Source of the DNA: a virus
Length of the DNA stretch: 64,000 nt
IMG/VR virus record: IMGVR_UViG_3300008267_000019
Location: 1 to 64,000 of that record
Reading direction: 5' to 3' (one strand)
Part shown: positions 1-19,599 of the stretch, in pieces
How the letters are laid out: each line of letters begins with the position of its first letter
How positions within the stretch are numbered: the stretch's first letter is position 1
The notes under the pieces: model-generated
Databases searched by the model: none
Told to the model about the DNA's origin: nothing
What the model saw: only the letters and a program-made list of their open reading frames with translations
Made by a program: the position numbers and the translations under genes

Positions 1-305
1 AGTTTAAATGGGAAAAGATTTCTAACTTAACAGAAGCTTTTAAGAATCTAGTACTATCAGATGTAGAAAGAGCGTTAGTTAATTGGAACGAAATTATGAC
101 AATGAGAGATACTTCGCTTAAAGATCTTTATAGAACAGCTATAGAACAAGGAGATACTGACGAGTTAGTTAAACTAGATAAAATGCTAAGTAATACTCCT
201 AAAATGTTTGAAGACTATAAAAAGATCAAACGAGATTACGAAGAAGAAAAGACAACTAAGAAAGGAAAAACTATATCATCACTATCTGACTCAGGGGAAC
301 TATGA
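1..305 (+). CDS. 5'-truncated hypothetical protein directly upstream of the terminase (possible small terminase subunit)
   Basis: The frame is open from base 3 (FKWEKISNLTEAF...) through the 96..305 ORF. Its stop overlaps the terL start (ATGA). Confidence 0.6.
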   Translation, partial: FKWEKISNLTEAFKNLVLSDVERALVNWNEIMTMRDTSLKDLYRTAIEQGDTDELVKLDKMLSNTPKMFEDYKKIKRDYEEEKTTKKGKTISSLSDSGEL

Positions 306-2479
306 TAGTAAACAATTCTAATTTTAGATTAAGTTCTATTCCTAACTTCCATCCAGAGTTAGAATACTATGAGCGCGTTTCTTTTTGGAAAGATGAAAAA
401 CGTAAATGCATAGAAGGCTACTGGTCATCTGGTAAGTGGATGCCAGGACCGTTATATTATTACATTAACTTTCACAACATACAATTCGAGGACGACTCTT
501 CTGTAGCACAGGCTTTTGGTTTGCCATTTCTACGCGACATAGATTGGGAGTTGTTTTTATTATATGAAGAATGTAGAGGCTTCTCAGGATTCTCCGATGA
601 TAAAAAATCTACATGTGATAGGCGTTACGGGCCCGAAAGAGAATTAAGTATTAAACTTAAAAGAATAACAGAAGCTGAAGCAGAATCTATGGAATACATT
701 CCTGCTAGAGAATATCTAAGAAAAAACCACGGTAAATCTTTAGGAAAGCCGTTATACAAAAATGCAGCAAAGCACTTTATGTCTATCCAAGCCAGGGGTT
801 CTGGAAAGAGTTACTCTACATCTGCTATAGTTGCCCATAACTTTTTATTTGACGGAGCCACTGATTATGATGATTATTTAGATAGAAGAAAGCTTAAACA
901 GTATATATCATCTGAAAGTATAATAGGCGCAATTGATACTAAGTATACTATACCCCTAATTGACAAAGTCAAAATAGCCTTTGAATTATTGCCAGGATCT
1001 TTTCATATGGGAGATGAGGAATATCCTGCGCCTTTAGCAGTAGGCTTCACAGGATCATTACAACCTAATAAACTTATTACAAGTAATCTTTCTAAAAGTA
1101 AACTATACCATAGAACCTTTAAAGACAACCCACTAGCAGCCAACGGAACCAGAGCAAACTTAGTAGCACTAGATGAAGTAGGTTTCATGTATAACATTAA
1201 AGAATCTTGGGGAGCCATTGAAGCTATTCAGGCATCAAAAGCTAAAAAGAATCTTGTTATATGGGCACTAGGAACGGGAGGTCTTGTATCAGGACGAGCA
1301 GCATTGTATGCAGAAAGTATATTTAGAAATCCTAGTGATTATAACTGCATAGACTTTGAAGATATATTTGAGCATAGAGGTAAGATAGGATACTTTGTGC
1401 CGTATTCTAAAACAATGAATGAGTTTAAGGATAAACCTAACTTTGATACTAATGAAGATTTAGCTAGATTATTTATAGAAAATAAACGCCAGGTAGCCAA
1501 GAAATCCCCTGATCCTACAGTATACCAAACAGAAATTATCAACGGTCCTATGGTTCCGTCAGAAGCTTTCTTAGTTTTAGAGGGCGCATTCTTTCCAACG
1601 CTACAACTTAAAGAACAGCTAGCTGAAGTAGAAGGAGGTAAGTATAAAAAATACACAGAAGCAAGTTTTAAAGGGCACATAAGTTTTAATGATAAAAACG
1701 AACCAGAGTTCTACACAGAACAAGATGTATTGCCTATAAGAAAGTTCCCGCTTAATCGTAATGATGATAAACGAGGCTGCATAGAAGTATGGGTAAAGCC
1801 TCAAAAGAATTCTGAAGGAGTTATACCTAGAGGAACTTATATAGCAGGCATTGACGTTGTAGATAAAGATAAAGCTACTACTGATTCTTTACCATGTATA
1901 ATGGTTATGAACAGATTTACACGACAAATAGTCGCTGAATATACAGGGCGTACAGGAGAAGCAAAAGATTTTTATGAAGTTTGTCGTAAGCTTTTATTAT
2001 ATTATAATGCAGTAGGTATGTATGAAAAGAACCTTATAGGCCTCTATAATCATTTTGATCAAAATAAATGTACGTATTTACTTGCAGAAACACCTTATCA
2101 ATTAAGATCAGTAGATACATATAAAGCAGGAACTAATACGTCTAAAGGTATTAATGCATCAGGATCAGTAAATGCAGAGGGAAGAAATATGGTTAAATCC
2201 TGGTTGCAAGAAAGAATAAGTGTAACTTCAGAGACTAGAGTATATGAAACTATTTATTCTTCAGCATTAATTACTGAATTAGTTATGTGGAACCCACAAG
2301 GAAACTTTGATAGAGTTTCTGCGTTAATAATGCTAATGTGGTTAGACTCTACTATGTTTAAAGAAGTAACACAACGTGTAGAAGAAGTAAAGACTTTTTT
2401 AGATAACGATTACTTTGCTAATATGGGAGTTTTAAAAAAGAAACCTATAGGAACTATAGATTCAAATTTTTATTCATAG
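302..2479 (+). CDS. terL: Terminase large subunit
   Basis: Walker A-like QARGSGKS, Walker B LVALDEVG, RNase H-like nuclease motifs YIAGIDVV and NFDRVSAL; precedes the portal gene. Confidence 0.93.
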   Translation: MIVNNSNFRLSSIPNFHPELEYYERVSFWKDEKRKCIEGYWSSGKWMPGPLYYYINFHNIQFEDDSSVAQAFGLPFLRDIDWELFLLYEECRGFSGFSDDKKSTCDRRYGPERELSIKLKRITEAEAESMEYIPAREYLRKNHGKSLGKPLYKNAAKHFMSIQARGSGKSYSTSAIVAHNFLFDGATDYDDYLDRRKLKQYISSESIIGAIDTKYTIPLIDKVKIAFELLPGSFHMGDEEYPAPLAVGFTGSLQPNKLITSNLSKSKLYHRTFKDNPLAANGTRANLVALDEVGFMYNIKESWGAIEAIQASKAKKNLVIWALGTGGLVSGRAALYAESIFRNPSDYNCIDFEDIFEHRGKIGYFVPYSKTMNEFKDKPNFDTNEDLARLFIENKRQVAKKSPDPTVYQTEIINGPMVPSEAFLVLEGAFFPTLQLKEQLAEVEGGKYKKYTEASFKGHISFNDKNEPEFYTEQDVLPIRKFPLNRNDDKRGCIEVWVKPQKNSEGVIPRGTYIAGIDVVDKDKATTDSLPCIMVMNRFTRQIVAEYTGRTGEAKDFYEVCRKLLLYYNAVGMYEKNLIGLYNHFDQNKCTYLLAETPYQLRSVDTYKAGTNTSKGINASGSVNAEGRNMVKSWLQERISVTSETRVYETIYSSALITELVMWNPQGNFDRVSALIMLMWLDSTMFKEVTQRVEEVKTFLDNDYFANMGVLKKKPIGTIDSNFYS

Positions 2480-2505: not shown

Positions 2506-5010
2506 ATGGCTCAGAGTTCACCAGTAAAAATGCAGGGCTATATAAGCTTCCCTCGCCAAAAATTACCTGATAGCAAAAAGGATGATAATTGGTTCATGAA
2601 GAATATAGACTTTGCAGAACATTTATTAACATCCGACGTAAACCTACGCTCTAATTTTAAAAATAAAAAATCTAATTATAATCTTAGAGCTAATATCATT
2701 AACGTCAAAGACTTTGAAAAGTTTATAAATCCTGATAATCTAGATTTAGAATCTCTTCCTGCAAGCTTCCAGCACATAGGAATAGAAAACTCTAAGATTA
2801 ATTTACTACTAGGTGAATACGCTCAACGTAAAAAAGAGTTTAAAGTTTATATATCTGCTAATGATCAAGACGGTATTTCCCGCAAGGAACAACTGTTAAT
2901 GGAACAGATAAAACAAGAACTTACAAATATAATTAAGACTAAGTCTATTTCTGAAGAAGAAATTGCTAAACGTCTTGATCAACTTCAGAAATTTCAAACA
3001 TATGAATTTCAAGATGTAGCAGAAATTACAGCTAATAAAATTCTCAAGAAAGAATGGAAAGAGAATGATTTTGACTTTATATTCTTGCGCACCTTTGAAG
3101 ACCTACTAGTTGGAGGCGAGGAAATAATGTACTGCGGTGTATTAGGCGGCAATCCAGTAATGAGACGTGTTAATCCTATGAATTTATATACTCTTGGGGG
3201 TAACTCTATGTATATAGAAGATGCAGATATCATTGTTGAATATGGCTATAAAACTGTAGGCCAGGTAATAGATGATTATTGGGAAGAACTATCAGAAGAC
3301 GATATAGATTTCTTAGAGCGCGGTAAAACTGACGCTTCTATGGGAGGCGGAGGTATAGGCCTTAACCGTGATGTATCAGTATATGACTATTACGGTGAGC
3401 AAGGAGCTCTAAGCATATTTCATCCTAATGAGATGGGAACAAGAACATTTGCTGGTGCATTTGATACCTATGGTAATGTAAGAGTTTTGAAAGTATGTTG
3501 GAGATCTAGAAGAAAGATAGGTGAACTTACTTATTTTGATGAAGACGGTGTAGAACAAAAAGACTGGGTCCCTGAAGATTATAAACCACAAAAAGAATTA
3601 GGAGAAACTGTTAGATGGATATGGGTAAATGAGTGGATGGAAGGTACAAAAATAGCTGACCATATCTACACAGTAATGCGTCCTGTACCATATGCAAGTA
3701 AATCTTTAGTAAATAAATCTAAAGGAACTCCGCCATATGTAGGATCTGTTAATTCTACTAATGATTACAAAGTACAATCTCTAATGGATATAATGAAGCC
3801 ATTAGCTTATTCTTATGACATTGCTTATTACAAACGAGAACTTGCTATTGCTACTTACAAAGGATCTTTTACCGCTTTAAACTCTTCTTTAGTTCCAGCA
3901 GGATGGGATCCAAAAGAATGGATGCGATATGTTACTATAAATAAATTTGCTTGGTTAGACCCTACTAATGAAATACTTAAAGGACCTTCTCAAGGCAAAT
4001 CAGCTGGAGCATTTAATACTCTTACTGCTCAACAAATCCAAATTGGTGATGTTAATGAAGTAGGTATGTATACTAATCTATTATTAGATATAGAAAATAC
4101 TCTAGGTAAATTAGCAGGTGTATCAGGTGCACGCGAAGGAGAAATTTCTAACCGTCAAACTAACGGTAGTGTAGAAACACAAATAACACAAACTTCTAAT
4201 ATTACTGAGAAGTGGTTTGCTATTGATGCTAACTTCCGTAAAAGAGTTTTAACTAAATTTTTAGAGTGTTGCAAATACGCTTATAAACGCAATCCTAAAA
4301 AAGGACAATATTTACTTGATGATCTTGGACAACAAATAGTTGCTAAGTTTGATGAGTTTGTAGCCTCTGAATATGACATACATGTATCCAACTCCACTAA
4401 TGATACTATGTTGTTTAATGATTTAAGAGCCCTTTCACAAGCAGCTATACAAAATGGACAAGCTACTATTGGAGATCTTATTGCTATTACACAATCTGAA
4501 TCTGTACAAGAAGTTGCTAGAAGACTTGAAGACTCTGCTAGAAAAATACGTGAAGAGAATCAAGCAATGCAAGAAAAACAACTTCAGGCTCAACAGCAAC
4601 AACAACAAATGTTGATGCAGCAAGAGCAAGCTAAACAAATGTTTGAGATGAAGAAACATGAAGATAAGATAGCAGTTGATAGAGAAAAAATACAAGCAGA
4701 TTTACAGATAGCAGGATTAAACAATTCAGTACAAGCAGATAGAGTATTATTAGATGCAAATAAAGTAATGATTGATAATGACACTGTAAATAGAGCTAAT
4801 CTAGAAAAAGCTAGAATAGATTCTGATAAAAATGGTATTGATGACTTCTTAGACTTACGACGCACAGATGTAGATGAAAACTACAAAAGAGAGCAAGTAA
4901 GAATAGCTGATGCTAAACTTGTAGAAACAGTTAGATCAAATAAAGCTAAGGAAGAATTAATGCAAAAAAGTATTAATAATAAAGCAGAAGGAGATAAATC
5001 TAAGAAATAA
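2506..5010 (+). CDS. Portal protein
   Basis: 834 aa, follows terL, long helical body and Q-rich coiled-coil C-terminus typical of crAss-like portals. Confidence 0.88.
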   Translation: MAQSSPVKMQGYISFPRQKLPDSKKDDNWFMKNIDFAEHLLTSDVNLRSNFKNKKSNYNLRANIINVKDFEKFINPDNLDLESLPASFQHIGIENSKINLLLGEYAQRKKEFKVYISANDQDGISRKEQLLMEQIKQELTNIIKTKSISEEEIAKRLDQLQKFQTYEFQDVAEITANKILKKEWKENDFDFIFLRTFEDLLVGGEEIMYCGVLGGNPVMRRVNPMNLYTLGGNSMYIEDADIIVEYGYKTVGQVIDDYWEELSEDDIDFLERGKTDASMGGGGIGLNRDVSVYDYYGEQGALSIFHPNEMGTRTFAGAFDTYGNVRVLKVCWRSRRKIGELTYFDEDGVEQKDWVPEDYKPQKELGETVRWIWVNEWMEGTKIADHIYTVMRPVPYASKSLVNKSKGTPPYVGSVNSTNDYKVQSLMDIMKPLAYSYDIAYYKRELAIATYKGSFTALNSSLVPAGWDPKEWMRYVTINKFAWLDPTNEILKGPSQGKSAGAFNTLTAQQIQIGDVNEVGMYTNLLLDIENTLGKLAGVSGAREGEISNRQTNGSVETQITQTSNITEKWFAIDANFRKRVLTKFLECCKYAYKRNPKKGQYLLDDLGQQIVAKFDEFVASEYDIHVSNSTNDTMLFNDLRALSQAAIQNGQATIGDLIAITQSESVQEVARRLEDSARKIREENQAMQEKQLQAQQQQQQMLMQQEQAKQMFEMKKHEDKIAVDREKIQADLQIAGLNNSVQADRVLLDANKVMIDNDTVNRANLEKARIDSDKNGIDDFLDLRRTDVDENYKREQVRIADAKLVETVRSNKAKEELMQKSINNKAEGDKSKK

Positions 5011-5098
5011 AGCTATAGTACTATAGTAAAACAATAAAGATTTTAAAAGCTAATTATTAAAATAATTTTAATATTGTAACCAAATAAAGACAGCATAT

Positions 5099-6268
5099 AT
5101 GAGTGATAACAACGAAGAGTTATTTGAAGGACTTCAAATAATGTCGCCAGAAGAACTGAATTCTGCAGTAAAAGCTGAAGATGTAGGTTCGGAAGATATA
5201 AGCAATTCAGTAGGAGAATCTGAAGAGTTTATATTAAAACCTGTAGCAGCAGAAACTGGAGATGATGCAACTACAAGGGAAAGTAAGGAAACTTACGTAC
5301 AAGAAAAAACTTCTGCTTCTAACGAGAACAGGGGTGAAACTGTTTATAAGGCTTTATTAAAAGAACTAGTTAAAGAAGGAGTAATTACTGCAGAAGAAGC
5401 AGAACTAGAACAATTACCTGGAAACTTTGACACTATAAAAAGTTTAGTTAATAAAACTGTAGAAACAAGTTTTAAAAATAAAGAAGAAAATTGGAAGCGT
5501 AATCTTTCTCCTGAGAAAAAAAGATTCTTAGAAATAGAAGATGCTTTTGATGAAACGGACCATGCAATCTTAATGGCCCAACGATTAGAGTTCTTTGAAA
5601 ATATCAGTGTAGATGCTATTAAGACAGATACAAACCTTCAAAAGCAAATTTACTTTGAGCAGTTAAAAGCTAAAAACTTTTCTGATCAAGAAGCAGTAGA
5701 AGCAATAGAAGATGCAGTTGCAATTAATAAATTAGAGGACAAAGCTTTAAAAGCAGTTCCTGAATTAAAAGCAATGTCTGAAGCAATCGTAGAACAATCT
5801 AGATATCAAAAAGAACAACAAACAAAAGCTGCTATAGAGCAACAAACAAAAGCTTTTGAGAGTTTGCTAGCTAATATAGATACTAGAGATCATTTTATAG
5901 ACGGTTTAAATCTTAATAAGATCACAAAAGATAAATTAAAAAATAACATTACAAGTCCAATATACAAAGATCCTAAAACAGGAAAAGAGTATAATTCTTT
6001 AATGTACAAACAAGCTAGAAATCCTGTAGAGTTTGAAATGTTAATAAACTACTATGACACTTTAGGATTATTTAATTTAGATAAAGAAGGCAAATTTAAA
6101 CCAGATATTTCTAAATTAAAAAACGTAGCAAAAACAGCAGCAATAAATGAGCTCGACAAAATTATTGCAGCAGAAGAACAAAGAGGAGTTGGCAGAAACA
6201 CATCTGTTGAGACTTCTCAAAGAACCGAGGGAATTTTAAGTATGCTAGAAAAAGCAACTAAAAGATAA
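5099..6268 (+). CDS. Acidic helical protein between portal and MCP (probable scaffold/assembly protein)
   Basis: Very acidic N-terminus, coiled-coil character, position directly upstream of the MCP. Confidence 0.6.
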   Translation: MSDNNEELFEGLQIMSPEELNSAVKAEDVGSEDISNSVGESEEFILKPVAAETGDDATTRESKETYVQEKTSASNENRGETVYKALLKELVKEGVITAEEAELEQLPGNFDTIKSLVNKTVETSFKNKEENWKRNLSPEKKRFLEIEDAFDETDHAILMAQRLEFFENISVDAIKTDTNLQKQIYFEQLKAKNFSDQEAVEAIEDAVAINKLEDKALKAVPELKAMSEAIVEQSRYQKEQQTKAAIEQQTKAFESLLANIDTRDHFIDGLNLNKITKDKLKNNITSPIYKDPKTGKEYNSLMYKQARNPVEFEMLINYYDTLGLFNLDKEGKFKPDISKLKNVAKTAAINELDKIIAAEEQRGVGRNTSVETSQRTEGILSMLEKATKR

Positions 6269-6306
6269 ATAATATATTCGTCTAACAATTAAAATAAAAA
6301 CAACAA

Positions 6307-7818
6307 ATGGCTCAATTACTTCCATTACAAAGGTATGAAGCTAAAGACTACAATGGTTTGGTTACTGATAACCACTTCCATTCTTTGTACCAGCAAAAGC
6401 CTCAGTTGATTAGCAACGTGATTAAACAAATCTACAAGACTAATCTTCAAGGTAAGCTGCGTGAATTCGTAGATCGTTTTCCTGTTAAAGAAGTTGAACA
6501 AGAAAATGGATTCTACAACTGGTTATTGCAAGGTCAACATGACAAAAACTTGCCACTAGTAGACGCAGAAACAATCAACGGTCTTACTATTTCTGCAGGT
6601 ACTTTTCCTGCAAACATAGGAGCAAACGGTGAAAGATTTTACTTAATCTTTGACGAACCTCTATTTGAAGAAACTAATGTTCTTCGTGGTGAGGTTGATG
6701 ACTATCATTTATTGGTTAAAAAAGCAATGGATGCTGGTTCTCGTTACAAAGTAGAAGTAGAACTTGTAACTGACAATCCTAATAAAACAGTTCCTTCAGA
6801 AGAACTTGCTATTGGTACTCGTTGGTCTAAATTTTACTCTTTGTCTCCTTCAACACTTTCTTATCAAGGTGCGAAGCCGTATTTCACTTCTCCTTGGAGA
6901 ATGGAAAACCGTCCTTCTACTTTGAGAATGGAGTATGAAGTAGCAGGCAACACAATCAACAAAGGTAAAAACGAACCATTAGAGTTTGGTTTTGCTTACA
7001 AAGGACAAACAGAATCTATTTGGATTAACTATCAAGATTTGGTAGCACACCACCAATGTGAAGAAATGTTTGCTCGTATGTTGATGTACGGTAAGAAAAA
7101 CTGGACTTCTGATCACAAGTACTTAAACAAAGATGACAAGACTAAATATGCTGTTGAGTCAGGTGCTGGATTCTTTGATCAAATCGCTCCATCAAACGTA
7201 CACTACTACAACTCTTATGATTTAGATTGGCATCTTGAGTTATTACTTGACATGGGTGTTGGTAAGATTGAAAGAGGTAAGCGTGTTATTCACTTGTTAA
7301 CTGGGGAATTTGGTGCTATCGAAATCTCTAAGCAAATCCAAGCTAAAACAGGTACAGGTAAATTTACTGTAATCTCTGACAAATTCTTGTTTAAAGATAC
7401 AGATCCAGGAAACCTTGGTGGTAAAAACACTAAAGGAGCTATGGAGCCACAGTGGAATGTTTATGAGTGGTACAACGGTGTTGTTATCATGGTTGAAATC
7501 CTAGATTTCTTTGATGATGATGTATACTTCCCACAAAGACATCCTGATGGAAAAGGTATCGTAGAATCTCACAGAATTCTTGCTCTTGATTATGGTGATA
7601 CTGCTGGTATCTACCGAGTTAAGCCTAAAGGAGTTCCTGATTACAACTGGGCATACATCCCTGGTATGAGAGATCCTTTCTCTCCTGCAGGTAAAGGTTC
7701 GCCTAAGATGGTTGCTTCTCGTGTTGATGGTTATGAAGTTCATTTCCAAAAATGGGGAGGTATGATGATCGAAGATCCTACTAAAGTAGTTGATTTACGT
7801 TTGAACGTATCTCGATAA
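6307..7818 (+). CDS. Major capsid protein
   Basis: 503 aa, crAss-like MCP size and position, codon usage of a highly expressed gene (many TTC/TAC/AAC/CGT), C-terminal YIPGMRDPF...DGYEVH segment. Confidence 0.88.
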   Translation: MAQLLPLQRYEAKDYNGLVTDNHFHSLYQQKPQLISNVIKQIYKTNLQGKLREFVDRFPVKEVEQENGFYNWLLQGQHDKNLPLVDAETINGLTISAGTFPANIGANGERFYLIFDEPLFEETNVLRGEVDDYHLLVKKAMDAGSRYKVEVELVTDNPNKTVPSEELAIGTRWSKFYSLSPSTLSYQGAKPYFTSPWRMENRPSTLRMEYEVAGNTINKGKNEPLEFGFAYKGQTESIWINYQDLVAHHQCEEMFARMLMYGKKNWTSDHKYLNKDDKTKYAVESGAGFFDQIAPSNVHYYNSYDLDWHLELLLDMGVGKIERGKRVIHLLTGEFGAIEISKQIQAKTGTGKFTVISDKFLFKDTDPGNLGGKNTKGAMEPQWNVYEWYNGVVIMVEILDFFDDDVYFPQRHPDGKGIVESHRILALDYGDTAGIYRVKPKGVPDYNWAYIPGMRDPFSPAGKGSPKMVASRVDGYEVHFQKWGGMMIEDPTKVVDLRLNVSR

Positions 7819-7826
7819 TAGAAAAA

Positions 7827-7868
7827 TAAAATGATCCCCTAGGAGGTGAAAGCCCTGGGGGACATTTT
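7827..7868 (+). terminator. Stem-loop after the MCP gene (terminator, processing or stability hairpin)
   Basis: TCCCCTAG/CTGGGGGA stem, GA bulge, GGT-GAAA-GCC tetraloop cap, closed by AAAATG/CATTTT. Confidence 0.7.
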
Positions 7869-7902
7869 AAATAAAGAGAATTAATAATAGACAGCAAATA
7901 AA

Positions 7903-8838
7903 ATGGAGACAGCAACAAAAGAAAAAGTGGTTTACGGATCATTTTTACAAGACAGAATAGTGTCTGTAAAACCCGTAGAATCATCAGGGAAATGGAGTAA
8001 CTTATTAGTACAAGGACAAGAAAGGATGAAAGATCCATTTTTGTTAAACAAAGCTAAACGAAGCTACCAAGTACCACTTAACAGTGAAGTTAGTGGAGGA
8101 GGAGTAAAAGTAATTTTGGATGATCAAAAGAGAGTTAAGATCCAAAAATACTTAGAAAGTTATCCAAACGGGATGACACAAAAAGAGTTCTTTGAAAAAG
8201 AATTAGGAGTAAATTTAAACCCTACTCTTAAACAGGAAGATAACTTCTGGAGAATTGATAGAAGAGGCAGAGTAGTATTGACTAAAGAAGGAACTACTTT
8301 AAATCTTAACAATGCATTAGATATGTTAAAGTATTTAATCTTGTTATCTAACAAAATGCTTATTTCTCCTTCTTATGAAGAGAGAACTTTAAAAGCAACT
8401 TATGAGTTTATGATAGTAGATGAAAGCAAAGTAACTACTATGCAACTTGAAGAAGCAGATATTAAAGCTAAAGCATTTATCAAATTTGCAGAAGTTACAA
8501 ACAGCAAAAAAGCTACTATTGGATTTATCAAATCACTTGGTAGAACAATTCCTGCTACAGCTACAGAAGATTGGCTAAAACGAGAAGTATTAAATATTGT
8601 AGATAGCAATCCTAAATATTTCTTAGAAATAGTTAATCATCCTCAATATGATGAAAGAATATTTGTTCAGGAAGCAATTGAGGCGGGAGCAATTATCCGC
8701 AAAGGAGAAAAAAGATACACTCTTGACAATGGTGCAGAGTTAGGTGATTTAACAGATACAATAAATTACTTACTTAATCCAGACAATCAAGAAGTAAAAT
8801 TAAGAATTAAAGCAAAAGTTGACTTAGCAAAAAGATAA
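7903..8838 (+). CDS. Conserved crAss-like protein downstream of the MCP (function unknown)
   Basis: 311 aa, A-rich leader, occupies the conserved post-MCP position. Confidence 0.7.
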   Translation: METATKEKVVYGSFLQDRIVSVKPVESSGKWSNLLVQGQERMKDPFLLNKAKRSYQVPLNSEVSGGGVKVILDDQKRVKIQKYLESYPNGMTQKEFFEKELGVNLNPTLKQEDNFWRIDRRGRVVLTKEGTTLNLNNALDMLKYLILLSNKMLISPSYEERTLKATYEFMIVDESKVTTMQLEEADIKAKAFIKFAEVTNSKKATIGFIKSLGRTIPATATEDWLKREVLNIVDSNPKYFLEIVNHPQYDERIFVQEAIEAGAIIRKGEKRYTLDNGAELGDLTDTINYLLNPDNQEVKLRIKAKVDLAKR

Positions 8839-8844
8839 TAGACT

Positions 8845-9612
8845 ATGACTGCAAATGAAATGGCAAACGAATTAGAATTAGAACTTGATAGAAGCTCTAG
8901 TTATGGTTCACCAGGATACGAAGATTTTGAATTATCTTCTGTACTGACTAAAGCTGTGAATTTTTATGTCAAAAAGTTTTATGATGAAGTTAACAACCGT
9001 AAAGGCAAAGGCTTTGAAGAAATAGAAATTAGGAACCAAGGATTAGCGGCATTAGTTAAAGATGCCGCGTCCTTAACTCCCTCTGCTTCTCAAGTCGGAG
9101 TAATAGTAAATAACAATGTAACTGGAAAGTTCTTTGATTTACCGAGTGATCACATGTATACTATCTATGAAGAATGTGTAATAGATAAAACAGAATGTGG
9201 TACAGAAAATACACCAATTATTGCATATGTCGTGCCTACAGCGCACAATGAAATGCAAAGATTTAATTGGAGTAAATATAAAAGACCATTTTATAAATCT
9301 TATGGCGATGCTAGAGTTTGGCGTTCAGAATTTTCCAGACTAGTAGATGGTGTGGACCCTGCCCCTCCTGCAACAGCAAAGCGTCATGAGTTATTTACAG
9401 ATGGTACTTTTAATATTGTTACTTATCATATGAGATACTTAAAAAATCCATCTGATATAGTAGTTGATAGAACTACTCCTGCCAATCAACAAAACTGCGA
9501 ATTAGATATTTCTACTCACAGAGTAATTATAGGAATAGCAGCAGACTTGATGATGGAAAGAGTTAAAGAACAAAAAATGCAAATAGTAGAAGGTCTTAAA
9601 GACTTAGAATAA
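8845..9612 (+). CDS. Putative head-tail connector / neck ring protein
   Basis: 255 aa; N-terminal MTANEM...ELD and C-terminal YLKNP...CELD..TH..I pattern seen in crAss-like ring proteins (from recall). Confidence 0.6.
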   Translation: MTANEMANELELELDRSSSYGSPGYEDFELSSVLTKAVNFYVKKFYDEVNNRKGKGFEEIEIRNQGLAALVKDAASLTPSASQVGVIVNNNVTGKFFDLPSDHMYTIYEECVIDKTECGTENTPIIAYVVPTAHNEMQRFNWSKYKRPFYKSYGDARVWRSEFSRLVDGVDPAPPATAKRHELFTDGTFNIVTYHMRYLKNPSDIVVDRTTPANQQNCELDISTHRVIIGIAADLMMERVKEQKMQIVEGLKDLE

Positions 9613-9644
9613 AAATAGATTATTAATTATAAAAACAAAAACAA

Positions 9645-10952
9645 ATGTTAAGAAAAGCAAACAACGTATTTAGCGTTATTCTTGGAGATGTTACTGTTAC
9701 TACTGCTGCAGTAAACGCAGCTGTTCCTGTAGGAACTGTAGTAAGTAACTTAAACTTACCAAATAATGCAGTCGTAATTACAGATGCAGGTCTTCGCAGA
9801 TTAGATGCAGCAGCTTATACTGCTCTTGCTACTGGAGATCAATTTTTCGTAATTCAAGGAAGAGGAGCAACTCAACCATTGATGAAATCTCCTATCCTTA
9901 CTAAAGGAAAGATTAAGTTTTCTATTGCACCGCATAAAAGAGCTCAACAACAATCTACTGCAGTTGGTTACAACGGAACAACAGGAGCTTTACCTGTAGC
10001 TAACAACACTAACTTTTTTATCAAAATTCGTAAAAGAGATAATGATGCAGCTAACCGTTCTCAACCTTTCAGTTTATTTGCAGGACCTGTTCGCACAGAC
10101 GCTACAGGTACTCAAGCAGAGTTAGCTTCTTTGTTAGTTAGCAATGGTTGGTTAAACTTTAAAGATGAGCCAGCTAGATATTACTTACGTTTTGAAGCTC
10201 TTTGTGATAACGTAGGAGCTCCTACAACTGCTGCAACAGGTACTTTAGCTGCTACAAACGGATCTTTGTTTGTATCTGCAACTGTATCAGGAGCTGCTGA
10301 ATTCTCTGTAGGTGATTATGTACGTTTTGGTACTGCTACAACAGATCCAGTTTATAAAGTAGTTGCTACTGCTGTTGGAGGTATTACTTTAGATTCTCCT
10401 TATGTAGGAACTACAGGTACTTTTGCTGCAGGTGCTGCTGAATTTATTACAGCTGCTTTAGCTGCTGTTGCTAATTTTGGTGTAAGAATGACTGGTGATG
10501 TAAATCCATTTGATGTAAATCAGTGGAGAGATTACTATGCAAATAGATTCACTGTTTCTTTCTCTGACTCTACTACATTGCTTACGCATTTGCAAGGAGC
10601 ATTTAACGGAAACGGAGTATGGCAACAAGTTGCAATGGATGAATATCTTTCTTACGGTTATGAAGGAGAAAACAACCAATTGGCTGTTCCTTCTATCCCA
10701 AGAGACCAAACAGTTAAAATCCCAGGTATTGGCGGTAACACTGTTAATACTTCTAAATATTCAGCTTTGAATATTGCATGGGAAGAAAGTATTTCTGGAC
10801 TTGTATCTATGGATGGAGGTAAAGGTAATGTACTTGTGTACTTTAACCTTGATAACTCTGCTCCAGGTGCAGGAGTTGTTACAGGGACTTCTATAGAAGC
10901 TAATACAATTCTTACTTTAGGATTGACTGTAGCAAACTTTAATGAAGTGTAA
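9645..10952 (+). CDS. Putative auxiliary capsid / head decoration protein
   Basis: 435 aa, A/T/G/V-rich beta-structure, high-expression codon usage like the MCP, followed by a strong terminator. Confidence 0.6.
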   Translation: MLRKANNVFSVILGDVTVTTAAVNAAVPVGTVVSNLNLPNNAVVITDAGLRRLDAAAYTALATGDQFFVIQGRGATQPLMKSPILTKGKIKFSIAPHKRAQQQSTAVGYNGTTGALPVANNTNFFIKIRKRDNDAANRSQPFSLFAGPVRTDATGTQAELASLLVSNGWLNFKDEPARYYLRFEALCDNVGAPTTAATGTLAATNGSLFVSATVSGAAEFSVGDYVRFGTATTDPVYKVVATAVGGITLDSPYVGTTGTFAAGAAEFITAALAAVANFGVRMTGDVNPFDVNQWRDYYANRFTVSFSDSTTLLTHLQGAFNGNGVWQQVAMDEYLSYGYEGENNQLAVPSIPRDQTVKIPGIGGNTVNTSKYSALNIAWEESISGLVSMDGGKGNVLVYFNLDNSAPGAGVVTGTSIEANTILTLGLTVANFNEV

Positions 10953-10964
10953 TTCTCCAACCCC

Positions 10965-11020
10965 TAGTAGCCTGCCACAATTTGCTGTCTAAAAAAGTGG
11001 CGGGCTACTATATTTTTATT
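10965..11020 (+). terminator. Rho-independent terminator with an unusually large loop
   Basis: 14-bp stem TAGTAGCCTGCCAC/GTGGCGGGCTACTA (one G-U pair), 18-nt loop, followed by TATTTTTATT. Confidence 0.85.
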
Positions 11021-11028
11021 TATCTTTG
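11021..11028 (+). promoter_or_regulatory. Bacteroidota-type -7 promoter element (TATCTTTG)
   Basis: TAnnTTTG immediately after the terminator and 17 nt before the ATG at 11046. Confidence 0.6.
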
Positions 11029-11045
11029 ATAAACCTTTAAAATAA

Positions 11046-11876
11046 ATGTCTTTAGTTCCTAAAATATCACTGTCTCTAGGTAATAAATGCAACTTAGTTA
11101 ATCTTATAGAAGAGACAAATCCTTATGAATTTACAACAAATCCTGGAGGATGGGGGGGCCCTAACTTAGACGCTTCTAGTATATTAACTGCAGTAGTTAA
11201 TATTTTTCCTTTTACATATACGCCTACAACTAATGCAGTATCAACAGGAAGTATTTCAGGAAACATATTTACAGATACTACACATTTAGCAGGAGTATTT
11301 GCAATAGGACAAACTTTAACAGGACCTGGAATTTTACCAGGAACTATAATTACAGCTTTAGGAACAGGTACAGGAACTAACAATGGAGGTACTTATATTG
11401 TAAACCTTTCTCAATCAGTAGGACCTATCACAATAACAGGTACTACTGTTTTAGCAAGTTATACCTTAAAGAATCCTAGTATTGATGTCTATACAGGACA
11501 AACAGGATATCCTGTATTAAATACATTTACTGCATTATCTGATCAACCTTGGAATGAATCAGATGGTATATATCAAATAATCTATACTATAGAAGATATA
11601 GGTTATACTAAATACACTAATGAAACTACACATCAATTATTTATATGTAATATATGTAATTGTAAAGACTCATTAGTTGTTAAACTAATAGATGCATGCG
11701 ATGCTATCACTGTTAAAAAACTTAAAGAACAAGTAGATCAAATGGAAGTATTTATCTACGGAATTCAATCCGCATTTGCATGTGGAGATTTTGATACTGC
11801 AGATAATATAATTATCGCAGCAACTAAATATTGTCAAACAGTAGTCAACTGCGGCTGTGATTGCGGAGACTGTTAA
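11046..11876 (+). CDS. Virion structural protein (possible tail hub / fibre anchor) with Cys-rich C-terminus
   Basis: Beta-rich N-terminal part with a GGWG motif and helical C-terminus ending CGCDCGDC; first gene of the fibre cluster. Confidence 0.55.
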   Translation: MSLVPKISLSLGNKCNLVNLIEETNPYEFTTNPGGWGGPNLDASSILTAVVNIFPFTYTPTTNAVSTGSISGNIFTDTTHLAGVFAIGQTLTGPGILPGTIITALGTGTGTNNGGTYIVNLSQSVGPITITGTTVLASYTLKNPSIDVYTGQTGYPVLNTFTALSDQPWNESDGIYQIIYTIEDIGYTKYTNETTHQLFICNICNCKDSLVVKLIDACDAITVKKLKEQVDQMEVFIYGIQSAFACGDFDTADNIIIAATKYCQTVVNCGCDCGDC

Positions 11877-18480: not shown

Positions 18481-19599
18481 TTGAAAAATCTCCCAAAAGA
18501 AGAGTTATTAAGTAGGCTAGAAGCAATTAACAGAAGTAATGCTATTATCTACTTTGACCTTGCTGGTATTATACTAGGGGTCAATGACATTTTTTTGGAG
18601 GCAATGGGTTATGGTAAAGGCAACCATGATGATATCATTGGTAAACACCATAGCATTTTTGTTTGTGAAGATTATTCAAAATCATTTGAATATGAGAAAT
18701 TTTGGGATATTCTAAGAAGTGGTAAGTATTACACTGGAGAATTTGAAAGAAGAAAAAAGGATGGAAGTCTTATTAATCTTCAAGCAACTTACAATCCTAT
18801 ATTTAATGAGGATGGTAAGATTACCAAAGTTATGAAGATTGCTACTGACATTAGTTTAATTGTCAATAGTAAGAAACAGATAGATGCCATCAACCGAAGT
18901 ACTGCTCTTATTAGTTTTAACACAGATGGTTTTATAACAGATGCTAATTCTATATTTTTAGAAACAATGGGATATAAAGCCAATGAAAAGGCTAAAGTCA
19001 TTGGGAAACATCACAGCATTTTTGTTAGCTACGAGTATTCTAAATCTGATGAATATGCTAAGTTTTGGGAAAGTCTGAGAAAGGGTAAGTTCTTTGATGG
19101 AATATTTGAAAGAAGAAAAGTAGATGGATCTACTGTTTATTTACAAGCATCTTATAATCCTGTAGTAGACAGCAAAGGAAATATAACAGATGTAGTTAAA
19201 ATTGCAACTGATGTAACTGAAGCTGTAAACAATGAAAAAAAGATAGAGGATCTTTCAAAAAATCTACAAATAGAACTAGACAACTCTCAAAAACTTAAGA
19301 ATGCAATAGAGATAGAAAAGGATGCAGCTTTGAATGACTTAGATGTAATGATGAAAAAAAGCCAAAGTGAGCTAATTAAAATCATTGTTAAAGTTGCATT
19401 GGCTGTTATAGTTGGAGTTGGACTTGTAACAACACTATTATATTGGGTTGCCATTGTAACAAGTCAAGATACTCAGATCATTGGATCAACTTGGAGTAAT
19501 ATGTTTAGTGTATTATTAACTAATGCCTTTTCAATAGTAGGTACAATCATGGGTATCAAGTATGCTACTCAGGAAACTGGAGGTAAACAAAAAAAATAA
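18481..19599 (+). CDS. Tandem PAS-PAS sensor protein with coiled coil and two C-terminal transmembrane helices
   Basis: Two BdlA-like PAS/PAC repeats (AINRS.A.I.F...N..FL..MGY...IGKHHSIFV...FW..LR.G...YNP....G....V.KIATD). No MCP, kinase or GGDEF output domain. TTG start codon. Confidence 0.9.
   Translation: MKNLPKEELLSRLEAINRSNAIIYFDLAGIILGVNDIFLEAMGYGKGNHDDIIGKHHSIFVCEDYSKSFEYEKFWDILRSGKYYTGEFERRKKDGSLINLQATYNPIFNEDGKITKVMKIATDISLIVNSKKQIDAINRSTALISFNTDGFITDANSIFLETMGYKANEKAKVIGKHHSIFVSYEYSKSDEYAKFWESLRKGKFFDGIFERRKVDGSTVYLQASYNPVVDSKGNITDVVKIATDVTEAVNNEKKIEDLSKNLQIELDNSQKLKNAIEIEKDAALNDLDVMMKKSQSELIKIIVKVALAVIVGVGLVTTLLYWVAIVTSQDTQIIGSTWSNMFSVLLTNAFSIVGTIMGIKYATQETGGKQKK

Follow-up and report, generated by a model that had tools for sequence, protein, structure and literature searches.

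In the RNA phage MS2, long-distance pairing couples translation inside one small genomic RNA, and lambda sib retroregulation acts by RNase III-triggered decay rather than by masking a start site. The small RNAs CpxQ and SroC, which derive from 3′ untranslated regions (3′UTRs), share the terminator of their parent mRNA and act in trans on start regions. The c4 antisense RNA of phages P1 and P7, reportedly described by Citron and Schuster in 1990, is said to sit in the same operon as its target and to pair through two short segments over the ribosome-binding region; c4 itself is encoded ahead of that target, is released by processing, and controls an antirepressor for immunity. For icaR, parts of the published account describe a 3′UTR motif that pairs with the initiation region, blocks the initiation complex, and creates an RNase III substrate (PMC3868564). 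Here, we analyze a candidate RNA element with features of these systems in the first 64,000 nucleotides (nt) of IMG/VR virus record IMGVR_UViG_3300008267_000019. The record is 84,121 bp long and has direct terminal repeats; this stretch, hereafter the window, makes up its left 64 kb.

The element consists of a predicted terminator hairpin, T2, which follows the gene for an auxiliary capsid protein (gene 9645, AUX), and of short boxes complementary to it or to its flank. The T2 loop contains a sequence, b′, that is antisense to b boxes at the starts of two upstream genes, 7903 and 5099. A pyrimidine box, a′, just ahead of T2 is complementary to a purine-rich a box upstream of the b box of gene 7903. 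From comparison with relatives, selection has very probably acted on a real RNA pairing. With moderate confidence, we favor a reading in which the 3′ end of the AUX mRNA is an antisense regulator built into a terminator and carrying two seeds.

Compared with the systems above, the element resembles the icaR, 3′UTR-derived small RNA, and c4 systems and is not a member of any of them. As in icaR, a short pyrimidine-rich 3′ motif faces an initiation region, and the UUCUCC and GGAGAA cores of a′ and a resemble the UCCCCUG/Shine-Dalgarno (SD) pair of icaR; the icaR hallmark of conserved complementary motifs in the 3′ end and the initiation region was also found in the phage. Unlike in icaR, the main seed lies in the terminator loop itself, a second seed accompanies it, at least two genes are targeted, and the targets lie 3 and 6 kb upstream in a structural module; the phage element may also act in trans rather than in cis. 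Nor is the target an SD sequence, as the b box is not purine-rich and SD-like and the SD-like a box lies 20–27 nt from the ATG, and the presumed host makes no use of SD sites. With c4, the element shares two short discontinuous complementary segments that undergo matched changes between relatives (a:a′ and b:b′); it differs in lying downstream of both targets, as the 3′ terminator of a capsid-protein mRNA in a lytic structural module. A conserved seed next to or in the terminator hairpin of the parent mRNA recalls CpxQ and SroC, whereas the phage origin, the unusual placement of the seed in the terminator loop, knowledge from sequence rather than from a stable fragment, and the lack of a known Hfq or ProQ context in the presumed host set it apart. 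MS2 and sib likewise have a distant downstream RNA element that controls an upstream or neighboring phage gene through structure, but neither uses a terminator loop as seed.

A terminator loop antisense to two gene starts

An earlier sequence-only reading of the window had pointed out that the T2 loop is the exact reverse complement of the leader box of gene 7903, and that the box core recurs before gene 5099, within gene 7903, and inside the PAS gene; all of these positions proved correct (Table 1). The duplex between the loop and the gene 7903 leader is predicted at −17.3 kcal/mol, the best of 6,397 plus-strand segments, and that with the gene 5099 leader at −13.1 kcal/mol. The b box of gene 7903 is predicted to be unpaired with a probability of 0.94.

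The same reading had warned that the match could be due to chance. For the window alone this warning stands: 842 inverted 12-mer pairs occur in it, compared with 491–607 in 20 dinucleotide shuffles, and of 63,983 18-nt segments, 796 (1.2%) are antisense over 12 nt to a start region when 46 crude open reading frames (ORFs) are considered, a figure that includes minus-strand genes trivially matching themselves. The b 12-mer is found in two exact copies plus one with a single mismatch (19166–19177); shuffles average 0.69, and 3 of 100 reach three. In the whole genome of 84,121 bp, the core GACAGCAA has only five copies. The observation rises above chance, however, once its conservation and covariation among relatives are considered.

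Conservation in the main clade

Relatives were gathered in three IMG/VR scans with the 435-residue AUX protein and two of its relatives as queries. These scans yielded 93 distinct contigs, which with the window make 94 records; 15 loci that were second copies of the same contigs were removed before tallying. AUX identity among the 93 contigs ranges from 72% down to about 40%, and the gene order is common to all, with six genes matched by tblastn lying in the same order and on the same strand in the mapped loci. No new contigs emerged from a search outward from L107 or from query P0050. Three intergenic regions were extracted wherever a contig reached them.

Within this clade, GCTGTC is present in the T2 loop of all 81 readable records (75 with TTGCTGTC, 6 with TAGCTGTC). 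Its complement, GACAGC, lies within 34 nt of the gene 5099 ATG in 62 of 62 records (56 with GACAGCAA) and, for gene 7903, in the leader or the opening codons of 85 of 90 records (80 with GACAGCAA); in one clade, the box overlaps the start codon (ATGACAGCAAAA). Relatives that conserve neither loop nor leader motif, named beforehand as the outcome that should end the proposal, are clearly not what was found.

The hairpin itself is equally conserved. Across 46 unique sequences, 13 stem pairs could be aligned with 99.8% of cells paired, and eight of the 13 are changed on both sides, a number that none of 500 shuffles reaches and that no slid register approaches. By this comparative evidence, T2 is a real RNA hairpin whose stem is kept by compensatory change. 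The loop core GCTGTC is invariant in 46 of 46 sequences while stem and flanks vary, and the G+C-rich hairpin is directly followed by a U-run, as expected of an intrinsic terminator. A sigma-70/terminator consensus scan did not list T1, a hairpin after the capsid gene, or T2 because it permits loops of only 3–8 nt, and the covariance models of Rfam 15 gave no matches at E ≤ 1 on either strand of positions 4900–11200.

Predicted pairing is specific to the two boxed genes. With one representative per 70% cluster, the loop:start duplex averages −12.8 for gene 5099 (n = 21) and −13.3 for gene 7903 (n = 27), as against −4.1 for the capsid gene start, −3.3 for the AUX start, and −4.5 for the start of the next gene. 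On these predicted values, the loop pairs specifically with two start regions. Rare variants of the b core retain pairing through G-U, as in L087 (GACAGCGA and GGCAGCAA), and the b flanks of gene 7903 covary modestly with the loop (9.96 versus 9.41 permuted; 18 of 20,000 permutations are as high).

A second complementary pair

Comparison of relatives also brought to light the a:a′ pair, which was missing from the list made by the sequence-only reading. In the window, its duplex is predicted at −8.3 kcal/mol, and the a box is predicted to be unpaired with a probability of 0.97. In relatives, a pyrimidine box lies 0–19 nt after the stop codon of the gene 9645 homologue. At least eight matched a forms were found, namely GAGAATTA plus seven others, each with its complement after the stop (Table 1), and these forms are clade-specific on a tree of the capsid, 7903, and ring proteins. 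Counted on that tree, the clade-specific forms imply at least five matched a:a′ changes. Among 27 cluster representatives (70% AUX identity), the longest perfect a:a′ complement averages 7.52 nt compared with 6.16 nt when permuted (standard deviation, 0.21), and none of 20,000 permutations reaches the native value; the complement is at least 8 nt long in 58 of the 77 records holding both regions. A trade-off exists between the lengths of a and b (Spearman −0.54, n = 27). The a box has been lost in L071, L078, and L079, whereas L024, L045, and L085 have no b in the capsid-7903 intergenic region (IG1) but keep an a:a′ complement of 9–10 nt. In some clades, a′ forms a small local hairpin with a GGAG-like copy of a that lies upstream of it (L045, 7318–7332; L060, 7335–7349; L047, 7333–7350), which suggests regulated access to this seed.

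A second lineage with swapped sequences

An AUX profile search (867 library representatives), followed by the use of four proteins as IMG/VR queries, extended the comparison. A second lineage of six contigs (L113, L114, and L140–L143, the latter from a metagenome scan) has the same gene order, with a capsid protein 56% and an AUX 33% identical to those of the window. Its AUX terminator has a 31–33-nt loop containing GTCTGCCA, and the starts of its gene 5099 and gene 7903 homologues read ATGGCAGAC and ATGGCAGGC, both of the form ATGGCAG(A/G)C. The predicted pairing thus falls on the start codon, with eight Watson-Crick pairs or seven plus one G-U. The corresponding duplexes are predicted at −16.1 and −14.7, whereas four control start regions give −2.1 to −6.8. 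When the loop was shuffled 3,000 times, both values were reached once; among 1,890 segments slid along the locus, −16.1 was reached by 25 and −14.7 by 55. The lineage itself shows no change in the loop core or at either start site, even though its AUX proteins are no more than 64–66% identical. Given that the loop and both start sites differ jointly from those of the main clade, the loop covaries with the leaders, which is the check that the sequence-only reading had proposed. Its central idea, a 3′ hairpin loop that serves as an antisense element for the starts of genes 7903 and 5099, is supported by boxes conserved over 94 records, a covarying flanking pair, and a sequence swap between lineages.

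The remaining lineages follow other patterns. Cellulophaga phage phi14:2 has T1- and T2-like hairpins, and the starts of its gene 5099 and gene 7903 homologues have an 8-mer, GGAACTGA, in common (L110, 5806–5813 and 8563–8570). No antisense copy of this 8-mer was found in the phi14:2 terminator, and the only complement is a same-strand one inside the gp103 coding region. In L119–L135 (17 loci), the AUX terminator has a long, perfectly paired stem and a loop of 4 nt. TAnnTTTG-like boxes lie about 15–30 nt before the gene 5099 and gene 7903 homologue starts in these loci, which share the leader AATAAGAA; these boxes may be a transcriptional solution to the same dosage problem. In L115–L118, nothing clear was found.

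Box avoidance at the ring gene start

The tail ring gene, which lies between genes 7903 and 9645, starts with ATG ACT GCA AA, and ACA at codon 2 (8848–8850) would create a perfect b box. Upon alignment of 77 main-clade records, the 69 Thr codons at this position comprised 51 ACT, 13 ACG, 5 ACC, and no ACA. Among the Thr codons of the window, ACA accounts for 39% and ACG and ACC together for 6%, yet one of the latter two appears at ring codon 2 on 18 occasions in the main clade. In lineages with other loops, ACA occupies this codon in 22 of 23 loci. Inheritance accounts for part of the avoidance; nevertheless, the repeated use of rare codons where the common ACA is never used suggests that acquiring the box is harmful, and that a b box at a start codon is deleterious is what a repressive contact predicts.

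Gene products and copy number

An AlphaFold 2 (AF2) model of the gene 9645 product (predicted local distance difference test score, 75.7) matched the phicrAss001 capsid chain 7qof_a in Foldseek (E = 1.8e-8; template modeling scores, 0.45/0.56; 11% identity), and the 333-residue length of that chain matches gp36. According to parts of the structural account of phicrAss001, gp36 is a 333-residue capsid auxiliary protein present, like the major capsid protein, in nine copies per asymmetric unit (PMC10172136, Bayfield et al.). By this fold comparison, gene 9645 is assigned as a crAss auxiliary capsid protein. As gp36 is equimolar with the major capsid protein, the gene 9645 product is needed in the same large amount. 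At the sequence level, gene 9645 had no Pfam or PDB match, and an hhalign comparison of its profile with phi14:2 gp099 was not significant.

The boxed genes have homologues in phi14:2. Gene 7903 aligns with phi14:2 gp101 (hhalign probability, 99.4%; E = 1e-21) and gene 5099 with phi14:2 gp103 (BLASTP E = 5e-12); PDB sequence searches with both were null, as was a Foldseek search with gene 7903. In the phi14:2 record, gp101 and gp103 are, unlike their neighbors, not marked as found in virions by mass spectrometry. Because AUX is equimolar with the capsid protein and gp101 and gp103 are unmarked, two high-copy shell genes alternate with genes of low-copy or non-virion products, and it is these latter genes that carry the boxes. 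Residues 248–311 of the modeled gene 7903 product (window 8644–8835) resemble the C-terminal domain of RecA (VIA Z, 9.7; root mean square deviation, 1.6 Å; 18% identity; ~60 residues superposed), and no structural match was found for the rest of the model.

RNA contigs from river metatranscriptomes

Nine sequencing runs recorded as RNA contain part of the window, and four river metatranscriptomes were analyzed as assembled contigs, in which depth cannot rank genes and stretches without cover prove nothing. In all four, contigs with a mean word depth of 8.5–23 cover the capsid gene (from about 6251/6264 to 7775–7850) and gene 9645 (from 9597–9632 to 10947–10975), and genes 5099, 7903, and 8845 and the next gene are represented only by short contigs with a depth of about 2–8.5. 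The uneven cover points to RNA rather than contaminating DNA. At T1, capsid contigs stop at 7775–7803 in three of four runs, with a separate contig beginning beyond the hairpin; the fourth has a high-depth contig that reaches into T1, as far as 7850. T1 is crossed by a single low-depth contig (7803–8137), and no contig spans 7888 to 10991. At T2, contigs stop at 10947–10975 and lower-depth contigs resume at 11021–11110, limits that need not be true RNA ends. The pattern is weakly consistent with T1 and T2 acting as terminators and with an abundant gene 9645 message that carries a′ and b′.

The sequence-only reading had placed the target genes and the abundant capsid proteins on the same mRNA. 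This is now doubtful, as the contigs give a weak hint that the capsid gene and gene 9645 lie on different abundant segments, so that the element is no less likely to act in trans than in cis. In two of the four runs, the gene 9645 contig runs into an Illumina adaptor at 10947 and 10957, 8–18 nt before T2, with many inserts ending at a′; the hairpin may have affected cDNA priming, or the RNA may truly end there.

Source and neighborhood of the element

None of the 32 upstream regions listed has a consistent SD motif at the normal distance from the ATG. Phages of Bacteroidota are alike in this respect, and the host would accordingly be Bacteroidota-like. The capsid proteins of cultured crAss-like phages are at most 30% identical to that of the window, which places the window in an uncultured lineage to which no cultured model or its RNA sequencing data apply. 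A DNA similarity search of the window against 50,697 phage records gave no match. Sequencing runs containing the window lineage are labeled as freshwater or riverine. Features of the locus are collected in Table 1.

Table 1. Features of the capsid module and the complementary boxes (window coordinates; a forms of relatives at the end)
Feature	Position	Strand	Details
Large terminase	302–2479		
Portal	2506–5010		
Putative host-type −7 promoter box of gene 5099	5069–5076	+	TAATATTG, inside conserved block TTTTAATATTGTAAC
b box copy, short gene 5099 leader	5088–5095	+	AGACAGCA; ends 3 nt before ATG at 5099
Gene 5099, acidic, helical, scaffold-like protein, 389 residues	5099–6268	+	Translation; BLASTP to phi14:2 gp103
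Major capsid protein	6307–7818	+	PF23898 Crass_capsid, E = 3.9e-83; phrog_11589
T1, hairpin and T-run after capsid gene, partial terminator	7827–7869	+	Predicted fold
a box	7876–7883	+	GAGAATTA, purine-rich; between T1 and b box; complementary to 10950–10957
b box, gene 7903 leader	7888–7899	+	TAGACAGCAAAT; ends 3 nt before ATG at 7903
Gene 7903, conserved crAss protein, 311 residues	7903–8838	+	hhalign to phi14:2 gp101
Second b box copy, codons 2–4 of gene 7903	7907–7915	+	AGACAGCA at 7907–7914
Tail ring protein 3/4 gene	8845–9612	+	PF25710, E = 8.8e-24
Gene 9645, auxiliary capsid protein (AUX), 435 residues	9645–10952	+	AF2 model and Foldseek
a′ box	10950–10957	+	TAATTCTC, pyrimidine; overlaps gene 9645 stop, just ahead of T2
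T2, predicted terminator hairpin	10965–11010	+	Arms 10965–10978 and 10997–11010; 14 pairs (one G-U); loop 18 nt
b′	10980–10991	+	ATTTGCTGTCTA; in T2 loop 10979–10996; exact reverse complement of 7888–7899
T-rich run after T2	11011–11021	+	Conserved in 46 unique sequences
b box copy, 11 nt, inside PAS gene	19166–19176	+	AGACAGCA at 19167–19174
a form GGAGAATTTA			Partner TAAATTCTCC
a form GGAGAAAAA			Partner TTTTTCTCC
a form TGGAGAAAAA			Partner TTTTTCTCCA
a form TTGAGGA..AAAAT			Partner ATTTTTCTCCTCAA
a form GAGAGAAAA			Partner TTTTCTCTC
a form GGAGAGAA			Partner TTCTCTCC
a form AGAGAG			Partner CTCTCT

Beyond the boxes, several candidate transcription signals surround the element. Upstream of gene 5099, TAATATTG resembles TAnnTTTG, which we take to be the Bacteroidota consensus. 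Parts of a preprint on phi14:2 describe a motif for promoters of the host RNA polymerase upstream of a gene between portal and capsid. A conserved block, TATATTCGTCTAACAA and its variants (window 6273–6288), stands about 20–30 nt before the capsid ATG in relatives, and the higher-depth RNA contigs start at 6251–6264; a promoter or a site of RNA processing may lie here. The leaders of the capsid gene and AUX both carry AAAAACAA..ATG. After T2, an exact TAnnTTTG box, TATCTTTG, lies at 11021–11028, ahead of gene 11046, and similar boxes occur in relatives; gene 11046 probably has its own promoter. At the T1 position, relatives have a hairpin with covarying arms in IG1. The T1 loop is also long (9–10 nt; window 7842–7854 and IG1 of relatives), with a semi-conserved GGAG.TGA.AGCC, and no complement to it was found elsewhere in the window.

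Not every copy of the box belongs to the conserved set. The core at 7907–7915, which had been listed as recurring inside gene 7903, is present in the window but is not conserved as a box, with relatives having GAAACAGCA, GAAACACAG, GCAAAGACA, and others. The PAS gene that carries the 19166–19176 copy belongs to the lysis cassette, and the duplex of this copy with the loop is predicted at −16.0 kcal/mol, the second best in the window. A copy at 79276 of the genome is antisense to a small minus-strand ORF and looks like chance. We rejected the box as a general late promoter, as there are only five copies in the genome, and the segment as invertible DNA, as the order is a-b on the left and a′-b′ on the right and is not mirrored.

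Proposed mechanism and alternative readings

In the reading we favor, seed 1 would be the exposed T2 loop (b′, UUUGCUGUCU), pairing with GACAGCAA at or on the start codons of genes 7903 and 5099. Seed 2 would be the single-stranded a′ (UAAUUCUC) just after the stop codon, pairing with a (GAGAAUUA) a few bases upstream of the gene 7903 b box. Parts of a study of Flavobacterium report that initiation is tuned by mRNA structure and upstream nucleotides, not by SD pairing (PMC6847099). Pairing at −15 to +3 should block initiation on such SD-blind ribosomes, which would need an open, A-rich leader. The AUX mRNA or its 3′ fragment could act in trans, or in cis on read-through transcripts, such that the two assembly genes would be turned down as the late AUX message accumulates. 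Their products would then stay scarce compared with the two capsid proteins, at roughly 500 copies, whose genes surround theirs. Repression of genes 7903 and 5099 is the probable effect of the pairing, given that the box sits at −15 to −4 or on the AUG, that initiation needs unstructured leaders, and that the ring gene avoids the box.

A number of observations weigh against this antisense regulator. Five of 90 gene 7903 leaders (L024, L045, L050, L085, and L106) lack the box; the flanks of the gene 5099 box do not covary with the loop (8.57 native versus 8.69 permuted); and the 6–8-nt core is invariant within the main clade, so that core covariation rests on the second lineage, whose six contigs have diverged little from one another. 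The feature is missing from three further lineages of like gene order (phi14:2, L119–L135, and L115–L118) and is thus present in two of five lineages examined. The a:a′ pair is weak on its own, as 590 of 6,397 segments match or beat −8.3 kcal/mol, and L007 has no a box while the a boxes of L088 differ by one base in length. Relatedness, moreover, inflates the permutation tests. Transcript ends, strand, level, and pairing cannot be read from the RNA contigs, and a single campaign may have produced all four runs. The order a-b/a′-b′ is crossed, and forming both helices would require a pseudoknot-like wrap around the hairpin. With a 14-bp stem, an a:a′ helix of 8–10 bp, and linkers of 4–8 nt, the leader would lie along the hairpin, an arrangement possible by rough geometry only. 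If gene 5099 encodes a scaffold, many copies would be needed, in poor accord with repression; the sign of the effect is itself inferred.

The same pairing could instead have a positive or structural role, either tying the 5′ region of the low-level message to the stable 3′ hairpin and shielding it from nucleases, or bringing the gene 9645 stop next to the gene 7903 start in a long-range coupling by which translation of one gene opens or feeds that of the other. The conservation evidence is equally compatible with such a role and with repression. In all forms, a′ overlaps the stop or is 0–19 nt away from it, where terminating ribosomes would melt a:a′, and the gene 5099 box is a few bases from the predicted 5′ end of its transcript. 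Nonetheless, we regard this role as unlikely because a box at −15 to −4, or on the AUG as in two clades, occupies a position that normally blocks initiation; because box avoidance by the ring gene is easier to read as shunning a harmful repressive contact; and, weakly, because both boxed genes are covered by lower-depth RNA contigs only. One specific version is a clamp, in which the two helices set the gene 9645 stop beside the gene 7903 start. With a′ overlapping the stop and b abutting the AUG, a terminating ribosome would melt a:a′ and briefly unmask the gene 7903 start or transfer to it. We consider the clamp a doubtful proposition; if true, it would be a long-range, possibly intermolecular translational gearbox that fixes the ratio of a low-copy assembly protein to a high-copy shell protein in hosts with SD-blind ribosomes.

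Readings without RNA pairing between loop and leaders fare worse. The sequence-only reading had offered protein binding as its alternative, and GACAGCAA might indeed be a double-stranded DNA site for a phage or host regulator, placed at three positions in either orientation, with the loop position incidental. An invariant core in the main clade and only five copies in 84 kb would suit such a site. It is now improbable, as in every case the third copy runs opposite to the other two and occupies the unpaired loop of a hairpin with a covarying stem, the a:a′ boxes covary in length and sequence like paired strands, variants keep G-U pairing, and the second lineage changed all three sites jointly, with the antisense copy again in a large terminator loop. 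No candidate regulator gene came up, although no search aimed at one was made. There is also only a slight chance that the leader box is a translation signal in its own right, through pairing with host rRNA or binding of a host factor, and that the terminator loop is a decoy mimicking its partner. Two genes do have the box at the same distance from the ATG, and the phi14:2 start regions share an 8-mer without an antisense copy in the terminator, but the wholesale change of the box between lineages fits a coevolving phage partner better than conserved rRNA. That conserved, unrelated elements merely happen to be complementary is extremely improbable. Although inverted 12-mers are common in the window and 1.2% of 18-nt segments match some start region, exact complementarity of two separately conserved 8-mers is very unlikely to arise by accident, the relation recurs with other sequence in the second lineage (one of 3,000 shuffles), a:a′ covaries, and AUX identities of 40–72% exclude an artifact of near-identical genomes.

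Implications for crAss-like phages

The crAss-like phages are among the most abundant viruses of Bacteroidota, and to our knowledge their post-transcriptional control is almost wholly unstudied. In the literature on crAss-like phages and Crassvirales, supplementary files aside, we found no description of such an element under late promoter, antisense, or RNA-RNA interaction. The capsid module mixes genes needed in about 500 copies with genes needed in few, and an antisense regulator carried by the AUX terminator would solve this dosage problem compactly. No earlier proposal of a conserved regulatory RNA-RNA contact would exist for the order, and the element would be among the few in which a terminator loop is used as an antisense seed. 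The locus would also offer a natural test bed for start-site structure in SD-blind initiation, for which the two lineages provide ready-made compensatory variants.

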